Positions 10,432-64,000 of a DNA stretch of 64,000 nt are shown here, in pieces (within the stretch, counting starts at the first letter, position 1; each line of letters opens with the position of its first letter). The position numbers were made by a program, and so were the translations under genes. Origin of the DNA: an uncultured Verrucomicrobiae bacterium (lineage in GTDB: Bacteria > Verrucomicrobiota > Verrucomicrobiia > Verrucomicrobiales > Akkermansiaceae); the NCBI GenBank assembly GCA_937957985.1, contig CALGOH010000223.1, positions 4,756 through 68,755 on the forward strand. The letters run 5' to 3'. The notes beneath the pieces are model-generated. The model saw nothing but the letters and a program-made list of their open reading frames with translations, did not search any database and had not been told where the DNA came from.

Positions 10432-11598
10432 GGCCGAAAGCCGTTCGAGCACCCGCCCGAGCAGCTCCACGCTCACCGGTGCTCCCTGGTGCAGGAGCAG
10501 GATGTCCCCGTCTCCGGCACCCTCGGTCAGCCGGGCCGTCATGCGCCCGACGTCGGTCTCCACCGTGTCGAAGGCCCGCCGCGACCACGCCACCACCTCC
10601 ATCCCGAGCTCGTCGGTCACCGGGTGGGTGAAGTAGTTGCTGTGGCCGACCGGCGCCCGGAACCAGCGCGGCGTCACGCCGGCGACCTCCTCGATCGCCC
10701 GCTGGCATCCGGTGATCTCGCGCCGCGTCCGACCGGGACCCAGGCACCACATGACGGCCTGCGGGTGGGACATCGTGTGATTGCCGAGTTCATGACCGCG
10801 CGCCGCGATCTCCCGCACCAACTCCGGGAACTCTCGTACTTTGTCCCCGATCAGGAAGAACACCGCCTTCACGCCGTGGCGGTCCAGCAGGTCGAGGATC
10901 GCCGGCGTGTCGTCGGGATGCGGTCCGTCGTCGAGGGTGATCAGCACACCCTTTCCCCGGACCTTCGTCGCGACCCGGCCGTAGAGCCCCGAGTCCGGAA
11001 GCAGGGTTCCCCAGCACCACAAGGCCGAGATGCCGGCCCCGCAGGCCACGCCCCACGGCCACCCGAGCCGCCACCAGGCCAGCCCCATCACCAGGTGCAG
11101 CGCGACCGCCAGGACCGTTCTGGCGAGCGTCCCGCCCCGGCCCTCCAAGCCCATCACCCGGTGCCAGCCGAGCGCCAGCAGCCCGATGCCCTGGAGACCG
11201 AGAAACCCCAGCCACACCCACGCGGTCGCACCCGCAAGGCCGGGTCCCGCCGCCCACCACGACCATCCGCCCAGCACCACCGCCCAGCACCAGAAGGCCG
11301 CGCCCGGCGAACGACGCCCGAAGCCGAACGACAGCACATGCAGCGCGAGAAACAATCCGGGCAGAACGACCAACCCGGCCAGCCACGGCCCGCCGACCCG
11401 CCACAACCCGTCGAAGATCGCCACGCCCAGCACCACCGGGACCAGCACCGAAAGCAGCCGCCACTCGAAGCGGTGCATCGCCCGGCACCCCGCCAACCGG
11501 ACCGCATCGCCCTCCGGCTCGACCAGCCTGCCGCCGAAGGCCCGGAACAGCGGCGTGACCGCCCGGTTGTCACGCAGGCGCACGGTCTCGCGCTTCAT
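10372..11598 (-). CDS. Polysaccharide deacetylase (NodB homology) with N-terminal polytopic membrane domain
   Basis: C-terminal [31 protein letters not shown]...[11 protein letters not shown]...RWFRAPVG. The N-terminal half has several W/G/L-rich TM segments. The start at ATG 11598 overlaps the stop of the upstream acyltransferase. Confidence 0.75.
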
Positions 11599-12536
11599 GC
11601 CCCGCCTCCTTTCACCCGACGGAAGACCGGCTCGAACACGAACCATTGCGCCCAGTGCGGTTTCACCACCTCGAGAATGGCATCCGCCCAGACCCTGACC
11701 CCCGGATCCTCCCCGCGACCCCGCGTCCGCGCCGGCAGCTCCAGCGGCGGGAAAACCCTCACCCGGTAGCGCCGCCACCCGTCCCGCAGGATGAAGAGCG
11801 GAAACACCGCGACCCCCGACACCCGCGCCACGATCAAGGGTCCCCGCGGCAACTTCATCATCAGCCCTTCGCCGACATCGACCTGCATCGGCGACACCTC
11901 GAACACCACCCGGTCGCCCTGCACCGCCACCACCTTTCCCTCCCGCAGCAGCCGCGCCAACTCCACGCCGAGCATCTCGCCCCCGTCGTTGTAGAGCGTG
12001 CGGAAGAGCGGATTCCGGCGCTCCTGCCCGCGCAGCTCCGCCTCGCGGATCCTCTGCAGCTCCGGATCCCGCTCCGGCGCCCTCACCGCATAGATCGTGC
12101 GGCCGAACTTCGAGGAGAACAGCGGCGCCGCCATGTCATAGTTTCCCATGTGCGCGGTCAGGATCAGGCACCCGTCGGACGTCGCCGCGAGACGGTCGAA
12201 AGCGTCGATCCCCTCGATCACCCAGTCCACGTCGCCCGTCCCCGTCTCGCAGCGCAGGGCATCGACGTAGGTCGCCGCGAAATTCCAGAACACCCGGTAG
12301 GCGCCGACCCAGGCGCGCGGCCCCGACCAGCTCGGAAAGAGCGCCCGGAGATTGCCCGCCACCGCCCGCCGCTGCTCGCCGGCGACGAGGAAAACCAGCG
12401 CCGTCCACATCGCCACCAGCACCGGCTCCACGAACCACGGCCCGCTCTTCAACCCACGCATCAGGAACCGCGTCGGCAGGTCCCCGTAGACTCCGAACCG
12501 CTGCTTCCAGCTCACCCCTTGCTGCTCCTCGCTCAA
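11595..12536 (-). CDS. Lysophospholipid/lipid A-type acyltransferase (LPLAT, LpxL/HtrB-like)
   Basis: 313 aa with an N-terminal TM segment. [16 protein letters not shown] carries the H-x4-D-like motif. The overall pattern resembles lauroyl/myristoyl acyltransferases. Confidence 0.65.
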
Positions 12537-12647
12537 CGCTCCCCGAGCAAAGAGTCCGCCCCCGCCACTGGCAAGCCCCGGACGCGCTCCGAACGCTACC
12601 TGTTTTCAAACTTCCTCCCCGCCCCGGCGGCCGCTATCTTTCTCCGA

Positions 12648-13853
12648 ATGCTCGATTTCTCGTCCATCAGCCCCTTGCTCCTCCGCTGCCTGCTGCTCGC
12701 AGTAGCTGCCTGGGGTCTCGGTCACGCCACCACCACTCCGGCCCGATCCCCCTCTCCCGGCACCTTGCATGCCTCTTATGCGACGGCGGAACCCATCGAT
12801 CTCCCCTTACCCCGGACCCGCCCCGCGCCCCGGATCTCGGTTCGGCATGTCGCCGCCTACGTCTACGACGACCGTGACTCCTCCCTGATTCGTGCGGTCC
12901 GCGCGCTGCCGGAATCCCCGCAACCATCAGCACTTTGCGCCCTCGTGCTGTCCCTCGGCATCACCCGTGGCGATCGCCGCCGCCGCCGACCCACCCTTAC
13001 GTCCGGCTTCCATCACCGGCCCCGACGAAACCGCCGGACTACGACTACGATACCACGGCCTGCACCACCCGCACCACAGCCGACCGGCACCAGCCACCGT
13101 CCGCAACGCCGCTCCGCCACCGCTCCGCCACCCCTCCATCAGGTCCCTCTTTGGCCATCCAGGGATCCGATTGAGGAAGAGGGAGGGTTGAACCTGTATG
13201 GGTTCGTGGGGAATGATGGAGTGAATGCCATCGATCTGCTTGGGAATCTGGAATATGATCATACGGGTGGACTTGATTCAGAGACGGTGTATCACCCTGG
13301 ACGTCAGGGTCGGGTTCCTGGTTCGGGAAGATGGACTGGGTTCGATGGTGAATTTGGCTACAGTGTGATTTTGTCGCACATCGTTCCAGATCACTATGAG
13401 TCAAGAGTCTTGGTGAATCTTATTGAATTTGAATGGTCGCTGACAACTAGATGGGGTGACGAGGCTTCTGGAAGCTACGCAAAGATTGACCTGTTTGAGA
13501 CATTTCCCGGTGGCTTTTATTACGATGATGTGCATTCCCTTCCTATTGGGTTTATTGAAGCCTTGGGATGGGATGTTTCAGAGCTCTGTTCGTTTACCGA
13601 GGAAAGAGAGGGCACGGTCGCTTTGGTTCGACCTGATTCATTCTTGGCTGACCCGGGAATGAATAGGGATCCTAAGACCGGTGATCTCATCAATAATCGT
13701 GTGATTCCGAATCCTGATGCCATTAGATCACAGATGGAGATTCCTTATCTCTCAGTCTATTCACTCGACTATTTTTGGTTAAGTGACGATGGATTTTCTT
13801 CAGGAGGATCTATTGGCGTTCTTGAGGAGTTGGATGGATCACCCTTCTTTTAG
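12648..13853 (+). CDS. Rhs-core-end motif plus polymorphic-toxin-like C-terminal domain (orphan cassette); N-terminal part uncertain
   Basis: Codons at 13161-13245 read [28 protein letters not shown], the DPxGxxGGxNLYxYVxN...D..G boundary motif of RHS/YD proteins. An unassignable, AT-richer domain of about 200 aa follows. Upstream, a signal-like [27 protein letters not shown] is followed by P/R/T-rich high-G+C sequence with no YD repeats. Confidence 0.6.
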
Positions 13854-13861
13854 GATCTGAC

Positions 13862-14284
13862 ATGAAATACTTAGTATTATTATTTTTTCTGTTGATGATG
13901 AATCCGGGTGTCTGTGATCTCTTCTTTCTCGATCGATTCCATTTGACGCTACTGAGCAGGGGTGTAGACCTTGACTACGAGTTGGATTACAAAGGAAATT
14001 TGTCAAAGAGGCAACTCGGTGACTCGTCGATACTTGGGAATGCGGGGACCTGGAAGATTACCGATGGCGAGCACGTTTACTACCTTCGAGTCTCTCAGGA
14101 GGCTGATGAAGTCACCAAGGCGAAAGAAGGCTGGGTGAAGGTGTCTGCGGCCCCCGATGCTTGGGTGTTGATGATGAATGAACGTGGTGCTGTGCTCGTG
14201 AAGGACAAGGTGTTTCGTTCACGGGTCGAAGCCCGGGTTTTCTTGGAAGAGGTGAGCAAGGCTTACCAGCAAGCGACTGAGTAA
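13862..14284 (+). CDS. Putative cognate immunity protein (hypothetical, N-terminal signal/anchor)
   Basis: 140-aa ORF starting 8 bp after the toxin-like ORF, with the same low G+C. It has a hydrophobic N-terminus MKYLVLLFFLLMMNPGVC. The call rests on position only. Confidence 0.5.
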   Translation: MKYLVLLFFLLMMNPGVCDLFFLDRFHLTLLSRGVDLDYELDYKGNLSKRQLGDSSILGNAGTWKITDGEHVYYLRVSQEADEVTKAKEGWVKVSAAPDAWVLMMNERGAVLVKDKVFRSRVEARVFLEEVSKAYQQATE

Positions 14285-14381
14285 GGTCTTATGAATGGGA
14301 ATAGTTGCAGCCAACCGCATTGGGCGTGCCAACCGGTTTCCATGCCAAGTTTCGGATCGAAGCTTCTCGTGTGGTGTCCTT

Positions 14382-14534
14382 GGGGTCGGTCCTTGCATTT
14401 CGCAATTGCTACGGTGTTCACGGAGCCTTGAGGGTTACGGTCCGCAGCACTTTTTGAACTTCCGGCCGCTGCCGCAGGGGCAGGGATCGTTGGATGGGGT
14501 CGGTCCGCGCATTTCGCAATTGCTACGGCATTCA
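14382..14534. repeat. Two 39-nt direct repeats (35/39 identical) 114 bp apart in an unassigned spacer
   Basis: GGGGTCGGTCCTTGCATTTCGCAATTGCTACGGTGTTCA at 14382-14420 and GGGGTCGGTCCGCGCATTTCGCAATTGCTACGGCATTCA at 14496-14534. Each contains the palindrome GCAATTGC. Confidence 0.8.
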
Positions 14535-14934
14535 TGGTAGATTTGGCCGGAAGGGTCCGGTTTGCTCCTTCGGCCTTCGAAGTCCGTGTCTTTCCGCGCT
14601 CCACTCTGCGGCGCGCCGCATGGTGTCGGGAATGTGGTTTCCGGTGAGGGTGATCTTGAGTTCGTCGGGATGGGGTCGTCCGGGCTTGGTCTTGAAGAGG
14701 GTCGGTCCTAGAAAACGAGCACAAGCCTTTCCTGCTACGTCGGAAACAGTAGAAGCGAAGTCCCTCCGGACCCCGGCTCGAAATGCTCCGCTCCTCAAAG
14801 CCAGGCTCCACACCGCCAAACATGCCACTGGCGTGCTGATCACGGGTGCTGCTGGCCTATGTTCTCCGGGGTCTCTCCGGGGTCCCAAAATTCCAAGGCT
14901 GTCGACGCGTAGGCAGCGGACTGGGGGCGGGTCA

Positions 14935-15024
14935 TGGCGGACAGGGAGGGATTCGAACCCTCGGTACTCTTGCGAGCACACTCGCTTTCCAGGCGAGCCC
15001 ATTCGACCACTCTGGCACCTGCCC
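14935..15024 (-). tRNA. tRNA-Ser (anticodon GGA)
   Basis: The reverse complement is GGGCAGGTGCCAGAGTGGTCGAATGGGCTCGCCTGGAAAGCGAGTGTGCTCGCAAGAGTACCGAGGGTTCGAATCCCTCCCTGTCCGCCA. It has a 7-bp acceptor stem with a G3-U70 wobble, anticodon loop CTGGAAA, a long variable arm, T-loop GGTTCGAATCC and an encoded CCA. Confidence 0.92.
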
Positions 15025-15307: not shown

Positions 15308-17356
<2,049 letters not shown>

Positions 17357-17361
17357 TGTAA

Positions 17362-17859
17362 ATGCCCCGGCAAACAAGTAAAATTGACTCGCTTATGCCT
17401 CTAAATACAGACACGCGGAGGGCTCTAAATGCCCTGATCGAGCGACTGTCGGCGCATGAACAAGAGACAGTAGAGATGAACTTTGCGCTCGGCGACTTCT
17501 TAAACGAAATCGTAGAGCAAAACGGTTCGAGGGGTGTTGCAAGGGTCGCGAGCAAGGAACTACGAAGGTTAACCGGACTCAATGAGTCAACATTCGAGTC
17601 AAATGCGCGATTGGCACGTCGGATCCCAAAACCCCGACGCACCAGTGGGGTCCCTTGGGGGGTATTACGATATCTCGGACTTGATTTGAATCCCAAGCGA
17701 TTCAACACCGACGAAAACACATTTTCAAAAGCCCTAGCAATGCTCATCAAGCGTGTCAAGAGCCGGAGTCTAACGCTTGTAGATCTCAAGGTAATGCAGC
17801 CAAGTGGATTGACTCTGGGAGAAGAGCTCATGAGAGAGACCCTTGAGAACAAGGTCTAG
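17362..17859 (+). CDS. Hypothetical protein with HTH-like segment, low G+C
   Basis: 165-aa ORF starting 5 nt after the dnaK stop. It is visibly AT-richer than its flanks. The segment ELRRLTGLNESTFESNARLARR looks helix-turn-helix-like. Confidence 0.5.
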   Translation: MPRQTSKIDSLMPLNTDTRRALNALIERLSAHEQETVEMNFALGDFLNEIVEQNGSRGVARVASKELRRLTGLNESTFESNARLARRIPKPRRTSGVPWGVLRYLGLDLNPKRFNTDENTFSKALAMLIKRVKSRSLTLVDLKVMQPSGLTLGEELMRETLENKV

Positions 17860-17875
17860 ACACCGAGGAGACATC

Positions 17876-18595
17876 ATGACCCTCACCTCCAAACACTCAC
17901 GCCTCACCGAGCTGCGGCCGCTTTCTCCGGAAGCGGTGCGCAGCGTGGCGGAGGCGTGGGAGGTGCGGATGATCTACGAGTCGAACTCGATCGAGGGCAA
18001 CTCGCTCACGCTGCGCGAAACGGAACTGGTGCTTTCGAAAGGCGTCACCGTCTCGGGTAAGCCGCTCAAGGACCACCTCGAAGCCGTCAACCTGAGCAAG
18101 GCCTGGGATCGTCTGAAGCAACTCGCCGGTCCCGACGCCACCTTCACCGAGCGCGACCTGTTCGACCTCCACGGCATCATCCTCGGCGGCATCGACGACC
18201 GCGGTGCCGGTCGCTACCGCGACTCCGCGGTGCGCATCGCCGGCTCCAACCACGTGCCGCCGAACCCCGTCAAGGTGCCCGACCTGATGGAGCAGCTCTT
18301 CGCCGGGGCTGTGGGCGTTTCCGACCCGGTCGAGCGTGCCGCGAAACTCCACCACGGCATCGCGGCCATCCATCCCTTCCACGACGGCAATGGCCGCGCC
18401 GCGCGGCTGGCAATGAACTTCGTGCTCATCGCCGCCGGCTATCCACCCGTCTCGATCTCCCCCGACCTGCGCGCCGACTACTACAATGCGCTGGAGCAGG
18501 CCGACGCCGGCGACTTCGCCGCCTGGCTCGATTTTCTCACCACCCATCTCGACCGCGAACTCGACCTCTGGCTCGAAGCCCTCGCGGAAAAGTAA
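17876..18595 (+). CDS. fic: Fic-family protein (AMPylase-type), class II with N-terminal inhibitory motif
   Basis: Fic motif [17 protein letters not shown]-terminal SNSIEG matches the (S/T)xxxE(G/N) inhibitory helix. GGAG lies 7 nt upstream of ATG 17876. Confidence 0.88.
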
Positions 18596-18602
18596 CCCCT
18601 CT

Positions 18603-59578: not shown

Positions 59579-62500
59579 TCACGGGTGGTGAAGTTTGCCG
59601 GAAGGGGAACCGACCGCGCGTTTCAGCGCATCGGCCACGTCCTCGGCGAGCGGGCCGACGTTTCCGTCCTCGAAAAGCGTGAGGTGCTCTCCGGGAACCT
59701 CGACGATCCGCAGCTCGTCGACATGGTCGGACCAGCCGTAGTCATCGGGGACCTCGAACTTGTCGTTCACGGCCGAGGCACGGAAGAGATGCAGGGTGCC
59801 GCGGAAACGCTGCGGCCGGTAGGCATCCATCGCGGCCTCGTGCGCCTCGCGGAGCTGGACCGCGCGGCGCTCGGTGTGCGCGGCGGCGGCCTCGCCTTTC
59901 GCGTCGGCCGACTCGACCTTCACGCGGAAGTGGGTTTCAACGCCGTCCTTGAAGCGCGACGCGAGCCGCAGGATGCGCTCGCCGAGCGGCGACGACGACT
60001 GGGCGTTCCAGTAAACCGACACCCGCTCGCTCAGCGCGTAGGGTCGCAGCTCGATGCCCGGGTTGACCGTGTCGAAGAGCGCCAGGAACGGAACCTCCTC
60101 GCCCGCTTCCACCAGTTGGCGGGCCATTTCAAACGCCACGACGCCGCCATAGGAGTATCCGGCGAGCAGGTAGGGCCCGTGGGGGCGACCCGTGCGCAGG
60201 ATCTCGACGTAGCGCGCGGCGGTGTCCTCGATCGCGCCGACCTCGATCCGCTCGTCGCGGCCAAGCTCGGGAGACTCGATGGCGAGGAAGGGACGGTCCG
60301 TCGGCAGCCGCTCGGCGAGCTGACGGTAGAAGAGGATGCCGCCGTCGCCGCCGTGGATCGCACACAGGGGTGGCAGAGCACCCTTGGACTGAACGGTGGC
60401 CAGTTGACCGGCGGACCCGAGCTTGACCTTTTCATCCGTGCCCTCGATGGCGACGGAAAGCAGGCGGATCGTCCGGGCCTTGAGCAGGGTCGCCAGCGGC
60501 AGCGAAACGCCGAACTCCTTCTGGATGCGCGCGAACATGCGCAAACCGGCGAGCGAGTTGCCGCCGAGGTTGAAGAAATCGTCGTCGCGGCCGGGACGCT
60601 CGATCCCGAGCAGATCGCTCCAGATCGAAGCGAGCCGGGTTTCGATCCCACCGTCCGGAGCGCGATGGCCCGGGACCTCCGCGCCCTGATGATCGGGCTC
60701 GGGAAGCTGGCTCACCACGACCTTGCCGTTCGCGTTGAGCGGCATTTCATCGACCTCGATCAGGTGATCGGGGACCATGAAGGCGGGCAGTCGTCCGGCG
60801 AGCCACGCCGTCACGGCGGACGCGTCGAAACCGTCATTGCCGCAGGCCCACGCCAGCAGTCGTTTGCCGCCGGCGCCCTCGCCGCGCACCGCCACCTTGC
60901 AGCGGGCCACCGAGGGGTGGCTGCCGAGCACCGACTCGATCTCGCCGAGCTCGACGCGGAAGCCGCGCAGCTTCACCTGGTGATCGATCCGCCCGAGGAA
61001 CTCGATGGTTCCATCCGCGGCCCAGCGGCAGCGGTCACCGGTGCGGTACATCGCGCCGGCGTCGGTCGCAACGAAGCGTTCGGCGGTGAGATCGTCGCGG
61101 CCGAGGTAGCCGAGCGCCAGGCCGGCGCCGCCGCAGAGCAGCTCGCCGGGCATGCCGACCGGGACGTCCGTGCCGTTCGCATCGACGATCCGGACGGTCG
61201 TCCCCGGGATCGGTCGCCCGATCGGGATCGAGCCCTTTTCAAGGTCCTCGAGAGTCACCCGGTGGCAGGTCGTGAAGGTGGTGTTCTCGGTCGGTCCGTA
61301 GCCGTTGATGAGCGCCGTGTCGGGCAGCGCCTCCATGGCGCGACGGACGTGGTCGGGAGAAAGCACGTCGCCTCCCGCCAACAGTTGTCGCAGGCCCTTC
61401 AGCCGGTCGAGACCCTCCTCGACCATCAGTTCGAACAGCCCGGCGGTCAGCCACAGGGTGGTCACGCCCTCGCTCTCGACCTTGCGCCCGATGCCCTCGA
61501 GCGAGGTTTCACTCTCGTCGAGCACCACCAGGCGGCCGCCGTGAAGCAGCGGCCCGAAGATCTCGAAGGTCGAGGCGTCGAAGGCGGGATTCGAGGCATG
61601 GAAGAACACCTCGTCCGCGCCGAAGCGGATCGGGCCGCCATTCTCGACGAGCCGCAGGATGCCGCGTTGCGGCACGACCACGCCCTTCGGCTTTCCGGTC
61701 GAGCCCGAGGTGTACATCACGTAGGCCGGATCGTCGGGTGAACCTTCGACCTTCGGAGCCGCGGCCCCCGGGATGCCGGCGGGATCCAGGAAACGAACGC
61801 CCTCGATCGGCTTCCCGGAGAATGCCCCCTTCGCCGAGGAGTCCGAAATAATCTCCCGCTGGCGCTGCTCGGGATCCTTGGGGTCGATCGGCACGTAGCA
61901 GGCGCCGGCCCGCAGCGTCCCGAGCATCGCGGCGATGGCCTCCGGTCCTTTTGGAAGCACCACCGCGACCCGGTCACCCTCGCCGATGCCGGCTTCGGCC
62001 AAGGAAGCGGCGACGGCCTCGACGCGGGCATCGAGTTCGGCGTAGGTCCACGAACCCGACGAGCAGGTCAGGGCCGGACGTTCCGCATGGCCGGCGGCGA
62101 TGCGACGGAATCTTTCATCCACCGATCCATCGGCCAGCTTCACCTCGACTCCACGCCAGGCATCGAGTTGGTCGCGGGCTTCCTCGCCAAGCAGTTGGAC
62201 GTCGGCGATGGCCAGAGCAGGGTCATCCGCCGCCTGCACGAGCAGTTCACGGAAGGCCGCCAGCCACGACTCCATCGTGCCCGGGTCGATCAGCTCGCGG
62301 TTGTAGGTCGAGGAAAGCAGCAGCCCCTGCGGCGACTGCATCAGGTTGAGGAAGATCGTCGAGTTGCTGTAGCGGGCGGGCACCGTTTCGACCTTGGCCT
62401 CGAGACCGCCGAAGGAACCGGGATCGCCCGATGGCTCGAAGTTGAAGATGATCTCCATCAGCGGCCTCCGCCCGCCCTCGCGGCCGAGCTTGAGCGCGCG

Positions 62501-64000
62501 AAGCAGCCGGCCGTAGGTCACGTCGCCGTGCTCGAGGGCATCGAGCTGCCCGGTCGAGGCGGAGGCGACCAGTTCCTTGAACGAGCCACCCTCTCCGATC
62601 TCCGCGAGCAGCGGCAGGAAGTTCACGCAGTGCCCGACGAGTTCTCCCTCGCCTTCGCTCATCTGCCCGGCGGTCGGGAAGGTCATCACGAAGCGCTCCT
62701 GGCCGCTGAGCTTGTGCAGCAGGGCCTGGAAACCGGCGAGCAAGGTGCTGTTGAGCGTCGCCCCACAGGCCGCCGAAAGCTTCTTCAGGCGAGCCAGCAT
62801 CCCGGCATCGAGCATCAGCTCGCAGGTGTCCGACGCATAGATCGGCGCCGGCGGATAAGCCTTCCGCAGCGGCAGCTCGACCTCGGGCACGCCGTCGGCG
62901 AAGCGTTCCGTCCACCAGGCCAGCGAGCCATCGCCGGACGCCGCCGCCCGGTGCTCGCGCAGCGCCCGATCGACGATCGAGGGGGCCGGCAGGAACTTCG
63001 GTTTGCTGCCCGCGAGGCGCGCCTCGTAGGCCTTGGTGAAATCGCGGATCAGCACCTCGAACGACCAGCCGTCGGCCGCCAGGTGGTGCGCGACGAACTG
63101 CAGCACGAGTTCGTCGTCGGCAAGCCGTGCCATCACCACCCGGAACAACGGACCGACCGCCAGGTCGAAGGCCGTCTCGCGCTGGTTCAGCCCGCACTCG
63201 CGCAAGGCCGCCTCGCGGTCGGCCTCGCCACGCAGGTCCACGTCGATGATCCGGGCATCCTGATGCGCGTCGATCACGAACTCGGGCGACCGCCCTTCCG
63301 GCACCCGCATGCGCAGGGCGTCGTGACGATCGACAAGGTCCTGCACCGCCGCCCGCACCGCCGACGGGTCCACGGGACCGCTCAGGCGGAGCTGGAGCAT
63401 CTCGTTGAACGCGAGGTTCGCCTCGTCGCCGAGCAGGGAGGCCAGCCAGATTTCGGCCATCGGCTCGGTCATCGGGAACGGCCCGCGCTCGCCTGTCGCC
63501 AGCGCTGCTTCGGCCCGCTTCTCGTTTCTCGGGAAGAACCCGCCGTCCTGAAGCTCGGCGATCGTTTCGCGGAAGGCGTTGATGACGAAGTCGACGTCGG
63601 CATCGGTGTGGGCCGCGGTCAGGTAGAAGGGCAGGCCCTCCATCGCGAACACGCCCTTGCTACGGAGATGATAGTAGATCAGGTTGCCGTGCTTCGCGCC
63701 GTCACCGATGCGCAGGTACATCTGCGAGTTGAAGTTGACCATGCGGACGTCGATCCCCTCGTCGCGGAACATCCGGTCCACCGTGGTCGCGAGCCGGTCG
63801 GCGCGCTTGCCGATGGCCTCCCAGTACTCCGGCGGTTGCTCCTTCACGTGGTTCAGCACCGCGCGACACGCGGCCATTGCCAGCGGCAGGCGGACGAAGG
63901 TGCCGGCGAAGAACGTGACCTCCTTCTCGGGGAAGGAATCGTCGCCGAACTGCCACTGGCCGCCATCGAAGGTATCCATGTACTCGGCCTTGCCGGCGCA
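59579..64000 (-). CDS. Terminal module of a hybrid NRPS/PKS megasynthase: (aminotransferase C-terminal part)-C-A-T-TE; 5' end outside window
   Basis: C domain motif HHLAADGWS (about 63062-63091). A domain YVMYTSGSTGKPKG (about 61690-61725), YRTGD and KLRGFRVELGEIE (about 60940-60980). T domain FFNLGGNSLAG (about 60550-60580). TE domain LAGYSYGG (about 60143-60165). The first 150 or so aa resemble the C-terminal half of a class-III (GSA-type) aminotransferase. The frame is open to base 64000. Confidence 0.88.
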   Translation of the reverse strand, partial: CAGKAEYMDTFDGGQWQFGDDSFPEKEVTFFAGTFVRLPLAMAACRAVLNHVKEQPPEYWEAIGKRADRLATTVDRMFRDEGIDVRMVNFNSQMYLRIGDGAKHGNLIYYHLRSKGVFAMEGLPFYLTAAHTDADVDFVINAFRETIAELQDGGFFPRNEKRAEAALATGERGPFPMTEPMAEIWLASLLGDEANLAFNEMLQLRLSGPVDPSAVRAAVQDLVDRHDALRMRVPEGRSPEFVIDAHQDARIIDVDLRGEADREAALRECGLNQRETAFDLAVGPLFRVVMARLADDELVLQFVAHHLAADGWSFEVLIRDFTKAYEARLAGSKPKFLPAPSIVDRALREHRAAASGDGSLAWWTERFADGVPEVELPLRKAYPPAPIYASDTCELMLDAGMLARLKKLSAACGATLNSTLLAGFQALLHKLSGQERFVMTFPTAGQMSEGEGELVGHCVNFLPLLAEIGEGGSFKELVASASTGQLDALEHGDVTYGRLLRALKLGREGGRRPLMEIIFNFEPSGDPGSFGGLEAKVETVPARYSNSTIFLNLMQSPQGLLLSSTYNRELIDPGTMESWLAAFRELLVQAADDPALAIADVQLLGEEARDQLDAWRGVEVKLADGSVDERFRRIAAGHAERPALTCSSGSWTYAELDARVEAVAASLAEAGIGEGDRVAVVLPKGPEAIAAMLGTLRAGACYVPIDPKDPEQRQREIISDSSAKGAFSGKPIEGVRFLDPAGIPGAAAPKVEGSPDDPAYVMYTSGSTGKPKGVVVPQRGILRLVENGGPIRFGADEVFFHASNPAFDASTFEIFGPLLHGGRLVVLDESETSLEGIGRKVESEGVTTLWLTAGLFELMVEEGLDRLKGLRQLLAGGDVLSPDHVRRAMEALPDTALINGYGPTENTTFTTCHRVTLEDLEKGSIPIGRPIPGTTVRIVDANGTDVPVGMPGELLCGGAGLALGYLGRDDLTAERFVATDAGAMYRTGDRCRWAADGTIEFLGRIDHQVKLRGFRVELGEIESVLGSHPSVARCKVAVRGEGAGGKRLLAWACGNDGFDASAVTAWLAGRLPAFMVPDHLIEVDEMPLNANGKVVVSQLPEPDHQGAEVPGHRAPDGGIETRLASIWSDLLGIERPGRDDDFFNLGGNSLAGLRMFARIQKEFGVSLPLATLLKARTIRLLSVAIEGTDEKVKLGSAGQLATVQSKGALPPLCAIHGGDGGILFYRQLAERLPTDRPFLAIESPELGRDERIEVGAIEDTAARYVEILRTGRPHGPYLLAGYSYGGVVAFEMARQLVEAGEEVPFLALFDTVNPGIELRPYALSERVSVYWNAQSSSPLGERILRLASRFKDGVETHFRVKVESADAKGEAAAAHTERRAVQLREAHEAAMDAYRPQRFRGTLHLFRASAVNDKFEVPDDYGWSDHVDELRIVEVPGEHLTLFEDGNVGPLAEDVADALKRAVGSPSGKLHHP

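Follow-up and report, generated by a model that had tools for sequence, protein, structure and literature searches.

A probable solitary orphan rhs cassette between housekeeping genes in an Akkermansiaceae bacterium

In polymorphic toxin systems, the 5' gene body stays constant and toxin cassettes join it together with their immunity genes (PMC3482391); orphan cassettes, which build up by C-terminal displacement or import, are open to re-recruitment via conserved core DNA (PMC5727410, citing Jackson 2009 and Koskiniemi 2014). Here, a locus of this kind is described in 64,000 nucleotides (nt) of DNA from an uncultured Verrucomicrobiae bacterium of the Akkermansiaceae (contig CALGOH010000223.1, positions 4,756 to 68,755); this whole stretch is referred to as the window. 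In all likelihood, positions 13139-14873 represent a solitary orphan rhs module, the detached 3' part of a Verrucomicrobial rhs locus situated between housekeeping genes. From left to right, the module would comprise: the last ~31 codons of the Rhs core; a hypervariable tip; the cognate immunity gene; and spacer repeats of the type found in cassette arrays. A sequence-only reading had already recognized at this position an Rhs-type C-terminal cassette that is orphaned, A+T-rich, and accompanied by an immunity-like gene; the analysis upholds that identification and shows the composition of both ORFs to be foreign.

As in described orphan rhs-CT genes, the locus contains a core stub homologous to that of full-length rhs genes (related loci L011, L035, and L060), followed by a unique tip and, directly downstream on the same strand, a small open reading frame (ORF) with a presumed protective role. 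L-numbers denote related loci: 79 from a scan of relatives, which used one genome per species and the core-end motif as probe, and L001-L003 in addition, making 82.

The left conserved edge of the cassette is the Rhs-associated core end (13139..13244, plus strand). The C-terminal end of the core itself occupies residues 172-199 of the ORF at 12648..13853 and DNA positions 13161-13244; the sequence-only reading had the start right and set the end at 13245. Its view that this motif closes the RHS/YD core ahead of a variable tip is confirmed by the TIGR03696 (Rhs_assc_core) profile, by 246 protein matches, and by homology at the DNA level. The motif is unique in the window, as judged by a six-frame scan. 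TIGR03696 aligns to residues 169-199 (E=1e-5, 25.9 bits) and covers only profile positions 45-75 of 76. Of the two profiles that the same reading had named for this ORF, TIGR03696 therefore does match, although below its curated cut-off of 32.5 bits, such that a complete core domain is not called; the YD-repeat profile PF05593 does not match, and neither does any other Pfam entry. Calibration on relatives places this score in context: a full-length Luteolibacter Rhs protein reaches 77 bits over positions 1-75, orphans retaining the YYDPxTGR part score 54-61 bits from position 25-29, and cassettes cut at the same W as the window score 24-30 bits. The low score is accordingly attributable to truncation, not divergence.

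In a search of 5.8 billion protein clusters, the 246 proteins that match the ORF (best E=1.5e-12) are all limited, in local alignment, to query residues ~130-210. In DNA comparisons, the segment 13152-13226/13249 shares 82-95% identity with core ends of many Verrucomicrobial genera and groups (Haloferula, Luteolibacter, Akkermansiaceae, Opitutales, Puniceicoccaceae), and the same three full-length rhs genes (L011, L035, L060) are among these matches. The left edge of homology is abrupt, at ~13139-13152, with DNA matches beginning at 13143-13152, and coincides with a fall in G+C and a shift in the codon-position profile. Within the motif, both aspartates of an autoprotease-type dyad are present, D173 (DPI) and D196 (DLLG), which flank the GGxNLY segment and lie 23 residues apart. 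In RhsA, the dyad D1324/D1346, with 22 residues between its members, catalyses tip release (PMC8765631). The window ORF thus carries the putative autoprotease dyad of a full-length Rhs protein and lacks the YD cocoon (PF05593/TIGR01643). This absence, which the sequence-only reading had also reported, holds throughout the window: no YD-like motif occurs in any frame, there is no Pfam or NCBIfam YD match, and the six-frame motif scan detects no rhs shell gene.

One further feature of the core end is its codon usage. When window positions 13152-13226 are compared with 84 related instances, synonymous sites in the motif show unusually little variation across high-G+C genera and carry A/T endings (GAT, ATT, GAA, TAT, AAT). 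The ten codons upstream are G/C-ending, host-like, and more variable, with the switch at the W codon.

The motif is followed by a variable C-terminal domain of 202 amino acids (aa) plus stop (13245..13853, plus strand), the presumed toxin tip, which belongs to no recognizable family, is acidic, and has an isoelectric point of 4.2. Eight nt past its stop begins a 140-aa ORF (13862..14284, plus strand) with a hydrophobic N-terminal signal or anchor, immunity-like in position, as had been noted before. Measurement also confirms the drop in G+C first seen by eye: from 0.72 at 13071-13160 to 0.54 in the motif, 0.46 in the tip, and 0.49 in the 140-aa ORF. The codon-position profile of the tip is GC1>GC2~GC3 (G+C at first, second, and third positions), and native genes of the window have GC3 of ~0.9. 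Given the local composition, the probability that the motif plus tip (231 codons) would be open by chance is P=2e-6, and that of the 140-aa ORF is P=3.7e-4. Both frames are open far beyond chance and are therefore real ORFs.

No homologue of the tip is found in the word-indexed search of the 5.8 billion clusters or in an exhaustive scan of 1.84 billion representatives, and the only database match to the 140-aa ORF is itself (P0121). Neither domain matches an entry in Pfam, NCBIfam, PADLOC, or the PDB. Single-sequence AlphaFold2 models are unusable, with a predicted local distance difference test (pLDDT) score of 33 for the tip and 46 for the 140-aa ORF. Because homologues are lacking and the models are unusable, the assignment of toxin and immunity function rests on position and analogy. 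The absence of homologues beyond the motif is also what would be expected if both were chance ORFs in an A+T-rich intergenic patch that holds no gene module. This explanation is effectively refuted by the two probabilities above, by matches to the motif at both the protein and DNA levels, and by a layout identical to that of hundreds of toxin-immunity pairs in relatives. With no relative among ~15 billion predicted proteins, the pair is a candidate new toxin and antidote.

The protein collection searched lists the product of the 140-aa ORF as a called protein, P0121, and lacks the toxin ORF, which annotators may have left uncalled or treated as a fragment.

Among the related loci, 79 motif-bearing ORFs have a same-strand ORF of at least 80 aa that starts -40 to +150 nt from their stop. 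The N-terminus is hydrophobic in 65 of these 79 partners, and many resemble lipoprotein signals. An exported immunity partner would thus appear to be the norm for the family, which fits the envelope target suggested by the sequence-only reading.

The module extends beyond the immunity-like gene. The earlier reading ended it at 14284; the following ~600 nt consist of rhs-array spacer repeats and are part of it. First, a post-immunity spacer element (AATAGTTGCAGCCAACCGCATTGGGCGTGCCAACCGG..., 14300..14400, plus strand) is colinear with the DNA directly after the immunity gene of a full-length Luteolibacter algae rhs (L035 4459-4560). Next, 14381..14537 (plus strand) contains two copies of a 43-nt direct repeat (GGGGTCGGTCC..GCATTTCGCAATTGCTACGG), at 14381-14423 and 14495-14537, for which 0 copies are expected by chance; the repeat equals the 5' part of the inter-cassette element. 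Between the copies, a 51-nt element (14442-14492) recurs in L012, L048 (3 copies), L033, and L057. Finally, 14693..14873 (plus strand) is an inter-cassette rhs-array repeat that forms the right end of the imported DNA. Compared with six copies in an array of Haloferula chungangensis (L030), it is 95% identical over 105 nt and 81% over 168 nt, and it is also present in L031, L026, and L008. Conserved intergenic repeats of cassette arrays (L030, L031, L035, L048, and others) are thus represented in all three segments.

Other window genes shared with loci of the same clade are only 64-75% identical, from which it follows that the inter-cassette repeat travels with the rhs pool and not with the genome. 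Since the ~600 nt downstream are rhs-array spacers, the imported piece measures ~1.7 kb, about 13139-14873. Two other accounts of the inter-cassette repeat were considered. A structured RNA finds no support: the z-score is -0.58, there is no covariation, and Rfam returned the tRNA only. A minus-strand ORF within the repeat (MFGGAEP...) was rejected as coding, as indels break its frame between copies.

Cassettes of this kind are frequent. The core-end motif occurs at no fewer than 557 confirmed sites, nearly all in Verrucomicrobiota. Among the 65 instances that contig ends leave intact, 48 are short and 10 intermediate, and 7 are preceded by a YD shell of more than 1000 residues. Shell-less cassettes outnumber full-length Rhs genes in Verrucomicrobiota. 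The full-length relatives start with Sec-type signal peptides, not with type VI secretion system (T6SS) adaptor domains, and a T6SS is therefore not needed. A Sec-dependent ("T2SS", type II secretion system) delivery class that includes Verrucomicrobia has been listed for RHS toxins (Zhang et al. 2012, PMC3482391). The suggestion that a shell-less cassette is unusual in a lineage without known T6SS does not survive these figures. In arrays, the unit of tip and immunity gene is found behind full-length Rhs genes (L011, L035) and in runs of orphan cassettes (L030, L027, L031, L050); several loci hold 3-5 cassettes in a row, each with a partner ORF.

In many short cassettes, a conserved 72-aa leader (M[AVG]Y..KNRVWGFF..RRQPQQPRRKIRPTPTKTASGIPYWPSRDPI) replaces the YYDPxTGR part of the core. 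This leader has a conserved start methionine and no signal peptide, is present in relatives P0002-P0028 and others as well as at L030 598-1464 and L035 8431-9048, and heads many cassettes whose truncation falls at the same W as in the window.

The DNA upstream of the motif behaves differently. The frame that contains the motif and tip is open from 11646 to 13853, and its first ATG past the neighbouring gene, at 12648, defines a 401-aa ORF. At its left end the stop-to-stop frame runs antisense across the acyltransferase gene. Codon-position G+C upstream of the motif is flat (0.70/0.66/0.71), and that of native genes is about 0.63-0.73/0.40-0.53/0.87-0.92. The upstream ~170 codons have no homologue among the protein matches or in the 82 related loci. 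Without codon periodicity or a homologue, they are probably non-coding, in line with the doubt voiced earlier about this P/R/T-rich part. A frame-shifted or decayed Rhs core, or a decayed copy of the 72-aa leader of class A cassettes, was considered as their source and rejected: the leader profile in six frames and protein searches gave no match. The interval 12537..13138 (plus strand), between the acyltransferase gene and the cassette, is accordingly listed, from its composition and the lack of a homologue, as a G+C-rich, C-skewed, and probably non-coding spacer.

The ATG at 12648 is nevertheless followed by a hydrophobic stretch, which had been read as a signal-like N-terminus. If this were genuine, the whole 401-aa ORF could be a small secreted toxin without a cocoon, consisting of: a Sec signal; a proline-rich linker; the core-end stub; and the toxin. 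The 171 open codons would fit such a protein, as would the many relatives called as 220-400-aa proteins with short leaders. Several features argue the other way. The flat codon-position G+C is unlike that of native or cassette genes, and no homologue of the leader part exists. The openness of the upstream 208 codons has a chance probability of P=0.05 in the locally C-rich composition, and the frame simply runs on antisense through the neighbouring gene. The n-region is acidic, with an arginine inside the hydrophobic core, and the conserved leader of relatives is absent. In addition, without the cocoon and the first 44 core positions there is no known folding route for the autoprotease (PMC8765631). 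We regard this explanation as very unlikely; the "signal-like" start probably arose by accident, the G+C-rich DNA happening to leave the frame open. The annotation would be corrected as follows: in place of a protein of 401 or 735 aa, the locus holds a detached Rhs tip and its immunity gene, followed by 600 nt of array spacer.

If 13139-14873 is an orphan module, the tip alone would not be deliverable: the YD cocoon and the N-terminal half of the core/plug domain are absent, and there is no credible start or secretion signal. With neither the cocoon nor the remainder of the plug/core, the ORF by itself would not be expected to process itself or to be delivered. The tip may instead be held in reserve. 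A full-length rhs gene with a Sec signal, located elsewhere in the genome, would supply the shell, and recombination via the 75-95 nt of conserved core-end DNA would attach tip and immunity gene to it ("C-terminal displacement"). Once attached, the equivalents of the aspartate dyad (D173/D196) would cut the tip free inside the cocoon, and the exported immunity protein would protect the envelope of the producer. The immunity protein may already protect the cell against neighbours that carry the same tip.

This last role could be the only one under selection. The immunity gene would then be an orphan immunity gene directed against neighbours firing the same tip, and the tip ORF would be an undecayed vestige. 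The 140-aa ORF is called as P0121 and the toxin ORF is absent from the collection, the tip has neither shell nor credible start, and Bacteroidales are known to defend themselves with arrays of orphan immunity genes (PMC12247911). Yet nothing suggests that the tip has decayed: its frame stays open for 231 codons in A+T-rich DNA (P=2e-6). This alternative is possible though doubtful, and it is compatible with an orphan module in reserve, not exclusive of it.

Four considerations weigh against the proposal of a reserve module. The recombination partner is assumed, given that no full-length rhs gene lies in the 64 kb. Toxicity and protection are likewise presumed, and neither protein has a homologue that would show the two genes together elsewhere. 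Moreover, the in-frame ATG and hydrophobic stretch at 12648 would allow a 401-aa product to be translated. Finally, orphans are expressed and active in some bacteria, so that "silent reserve" may be too narrow a description (PMC5727410).

How the cassette arrived at its present position is a separate question. On the right it is bordered, outside the cassette, by tRNA-Ser(GGA) (14935-15024, minus strand; ARAGORN, Rfam). The sequence-only reading gave the distance as about 650 bp, and indeed the 3' end of the tRNA faces the cassette, 651 nt from the stop of the 140-aa ORF. The right end of the imported DNA is nearer, ~60-75 nt from the tRNA 3' end. That reading's proposal of an island insertion point fares less well: there is no cassette-linked integrase and no tRNA repeat, and tRNAs are not associated with related loci. 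A tblastn search with three recombinases of the cassette-linked family gave no match in the window, other integrase families not having been searched. Repeats of the tRNA 3' half of at least 9 nt are absent from 11500-14900, and a 23-nt probe from this half has no match with up to 3 mismatches elsewhere in the window. A tRNA is nearby in 4 of 49 related loci and is never tRNA-Ser(GGA). The adjacency is real; as an insertion mechanism it is unsupported.

Housekeeping genes flank the locus on either side (methyltransferase, polysaccharide deacetylase, lipid A acyltransferase, dnaK, and groEL). The left neighbour is the lipid A acyltransferase gene (11595-12536, minus strand). Metagenomic relatives (60-86% identity, L083-L096) keep the acyltransferase-deacetylase pair without tRNA-Ser or dnaK opposite, which places the cassette at a synteny break. 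As the DNA on the cassette side of these relatives is unrelated, they afford no empty-site comparison.

Two other features of the window lie apart from the cassette. A second low-G+C patch (0.50-0.56) spans 17250-18600, between dnaK and groEL, and contains a Fic/DOC-family ORF (17843-18595, Pfam E=4e-22) that may be acquired. Unrelated to the cassette is a single-module non-ribosomal peptide synthetase of 1465 aa (59579-63979, minus strand), with condensation, adenylation, carrier-protein, and thioesterase domains.

In relatives, a recombinase is often close at hand. In 13 of the 79 scan loci (16/82 with L001-L003), the gene immediately upstream of a cassette, on the same strand, encodes a XerC/XerD-like tyrosine recombinase of one family, and in at least six genomes its reading frame continues unbroken into the core end and tip. 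This read-through points to real fusion proteins or to a frame-preserving junction. The linker between recombinase and core end is 105-175 aa long, acidic, and proline-rich (L015, L027, L045, L050, L067, L069, L074; P0052, P0076, P0119). Rhs-linked integrases have been noted in bee-gut bacteria, with no mechanism given (PMC5727410), and recombinase-headed immunity arrays are known in Bacteroidales (PMC12247911).

A second recurrent arrangement is a module in which a DnaG/Toprim-type primase (~1000 aa) and an integrase are followed by a leader-bearing core-end cassette and its partner ORF. It is found in five or six loci (L001, 5662-10825; L009; L022; L035, 5454-9048; L046; L021) and resembles a small integrative element that carries toxin tips; the L035 copy lies just downstream of a full-length rhs gene and its immunity gene. 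Integration of such an element into the core end of a resident rhs gene is at most a lead: it fits L035 but not L001, L009, L022, or L046, in which no core end lies upstream of the primase.

These observations raise the alternative that the window cassette was placed by a XerC/XerD-like recombinase acting at the core-end site, or is the remnant of an integrative element that targets tRNA-Ser. Related recombinases head cassettes in the proportion given above, with in-frame fusions (P0052, P0076, P0119), and the primase-integrase-cassette module recurs (L001, L009, L022, L035, L046). The imported DNA ends close to the tRNA, and the motif's third codon positions show unusual conservation, with A/T endings, from genus to genus. 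Set against this, the window has no homologue of the cassette-linked recombinases and no direct repeat of the tRNA end, and related loci show no tRNA association. Gene conversion and horizontal spread of cassettes would account equally for conservation at the DNA level. This origin is judged unlikely.

A bolder combination would be that the ~75-nt core end (TGGCCATCCAGGGATCCGATTGAGGAAGAGGGAGGGTTGAACCTGTATGGGTTCGTGGGGAATGATGG) is itself the XerC/XerD-like recombinase site and that the tip, paired with an exported immunity protein that is likewise new, has a new toxin fold acting on the envelope. Both together seem improbable. If true, Verrucomicrobia would swap Rhs tips by site-specific instead of homologous recombination, and the solitary cassette beside the tRNA would have landed there off target. 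Of broader interest are the relatives, whose low-G+C tip cassettes form a large Verrucomicrobial pool with near-invariant core-end DNA and spacer repeats, often linked or fused to one tyrosine recombinase family and a primase; this pool could make the mechanism of tip exchange directly testable. The recombinase and spacer-repeat system of the relatives is more promising than the window itself.

Taken against the orphan module proposed for 13139-14873, the closest described systems are the orphan rhs-CT/rhsI genes of Enterobacteria and Snodgrassella (PMC5727410). Both consist of a stub of core DNA, a hypervariable tip, and a small same-strand immunity gene; both have G+C below that of the host, lack a shell and a dependable start, and are presumed to be a recombination reserve. 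Classical orphans adjoin a full-length rhs gene by lying downstream of it, whereas the window cassette is solitary between housekeeping genes within the 64 kb seen. Its stub is also very short, at 31 codons, truncated at the W of WPSRDP, and the full-length Rhs proteins of its lineage use Sec signals instead of the PAAR/VgrG-T6SS route.

Within Verrucomicrobiota, the nearest counterparts are the class A cassettes (MAYF..KNRVWGFF..KTASGIPYWPSRDPI; P0003, P0028, L001, L035 8431-9048). These have the same core truncation, with TIGR03696 matching from ~42-45, a few nucleotides in common just upstream of the TGG, and a similar tip length and partner ORF. The window differs in that it lacks the conserved 72-aa leader, and no integrase or primase stands ahead of its cassette, as is the case for many of class A. 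The rAID arrays of Bacteroidales (PMC12247911) are likewise made of low-G+C short genes with conserved intergenic motifs, and the window's relatives, as in rAID arrays, are often recombinase-headed. rAID arrays are recombinase-defined and hold immunity genes only, whereas the window has one toxin-immunity pair and no recombinase. With the stand-alone cassettes of polymorphic toxin systems (Zhang et al. 2012, PMC3482391), the window cassette shares the toxin-immunity exchange unit and the RHS core end as the pre-toxin boundary; it differs in that its tip and immunity domains match no Pfam, NCBIfam, PADLOC, or PDB entry searched. The cassette is real but ordinary: its kind is very common in Verrucomicrobia, and it is unusual only in encoding proteins without known relatives.

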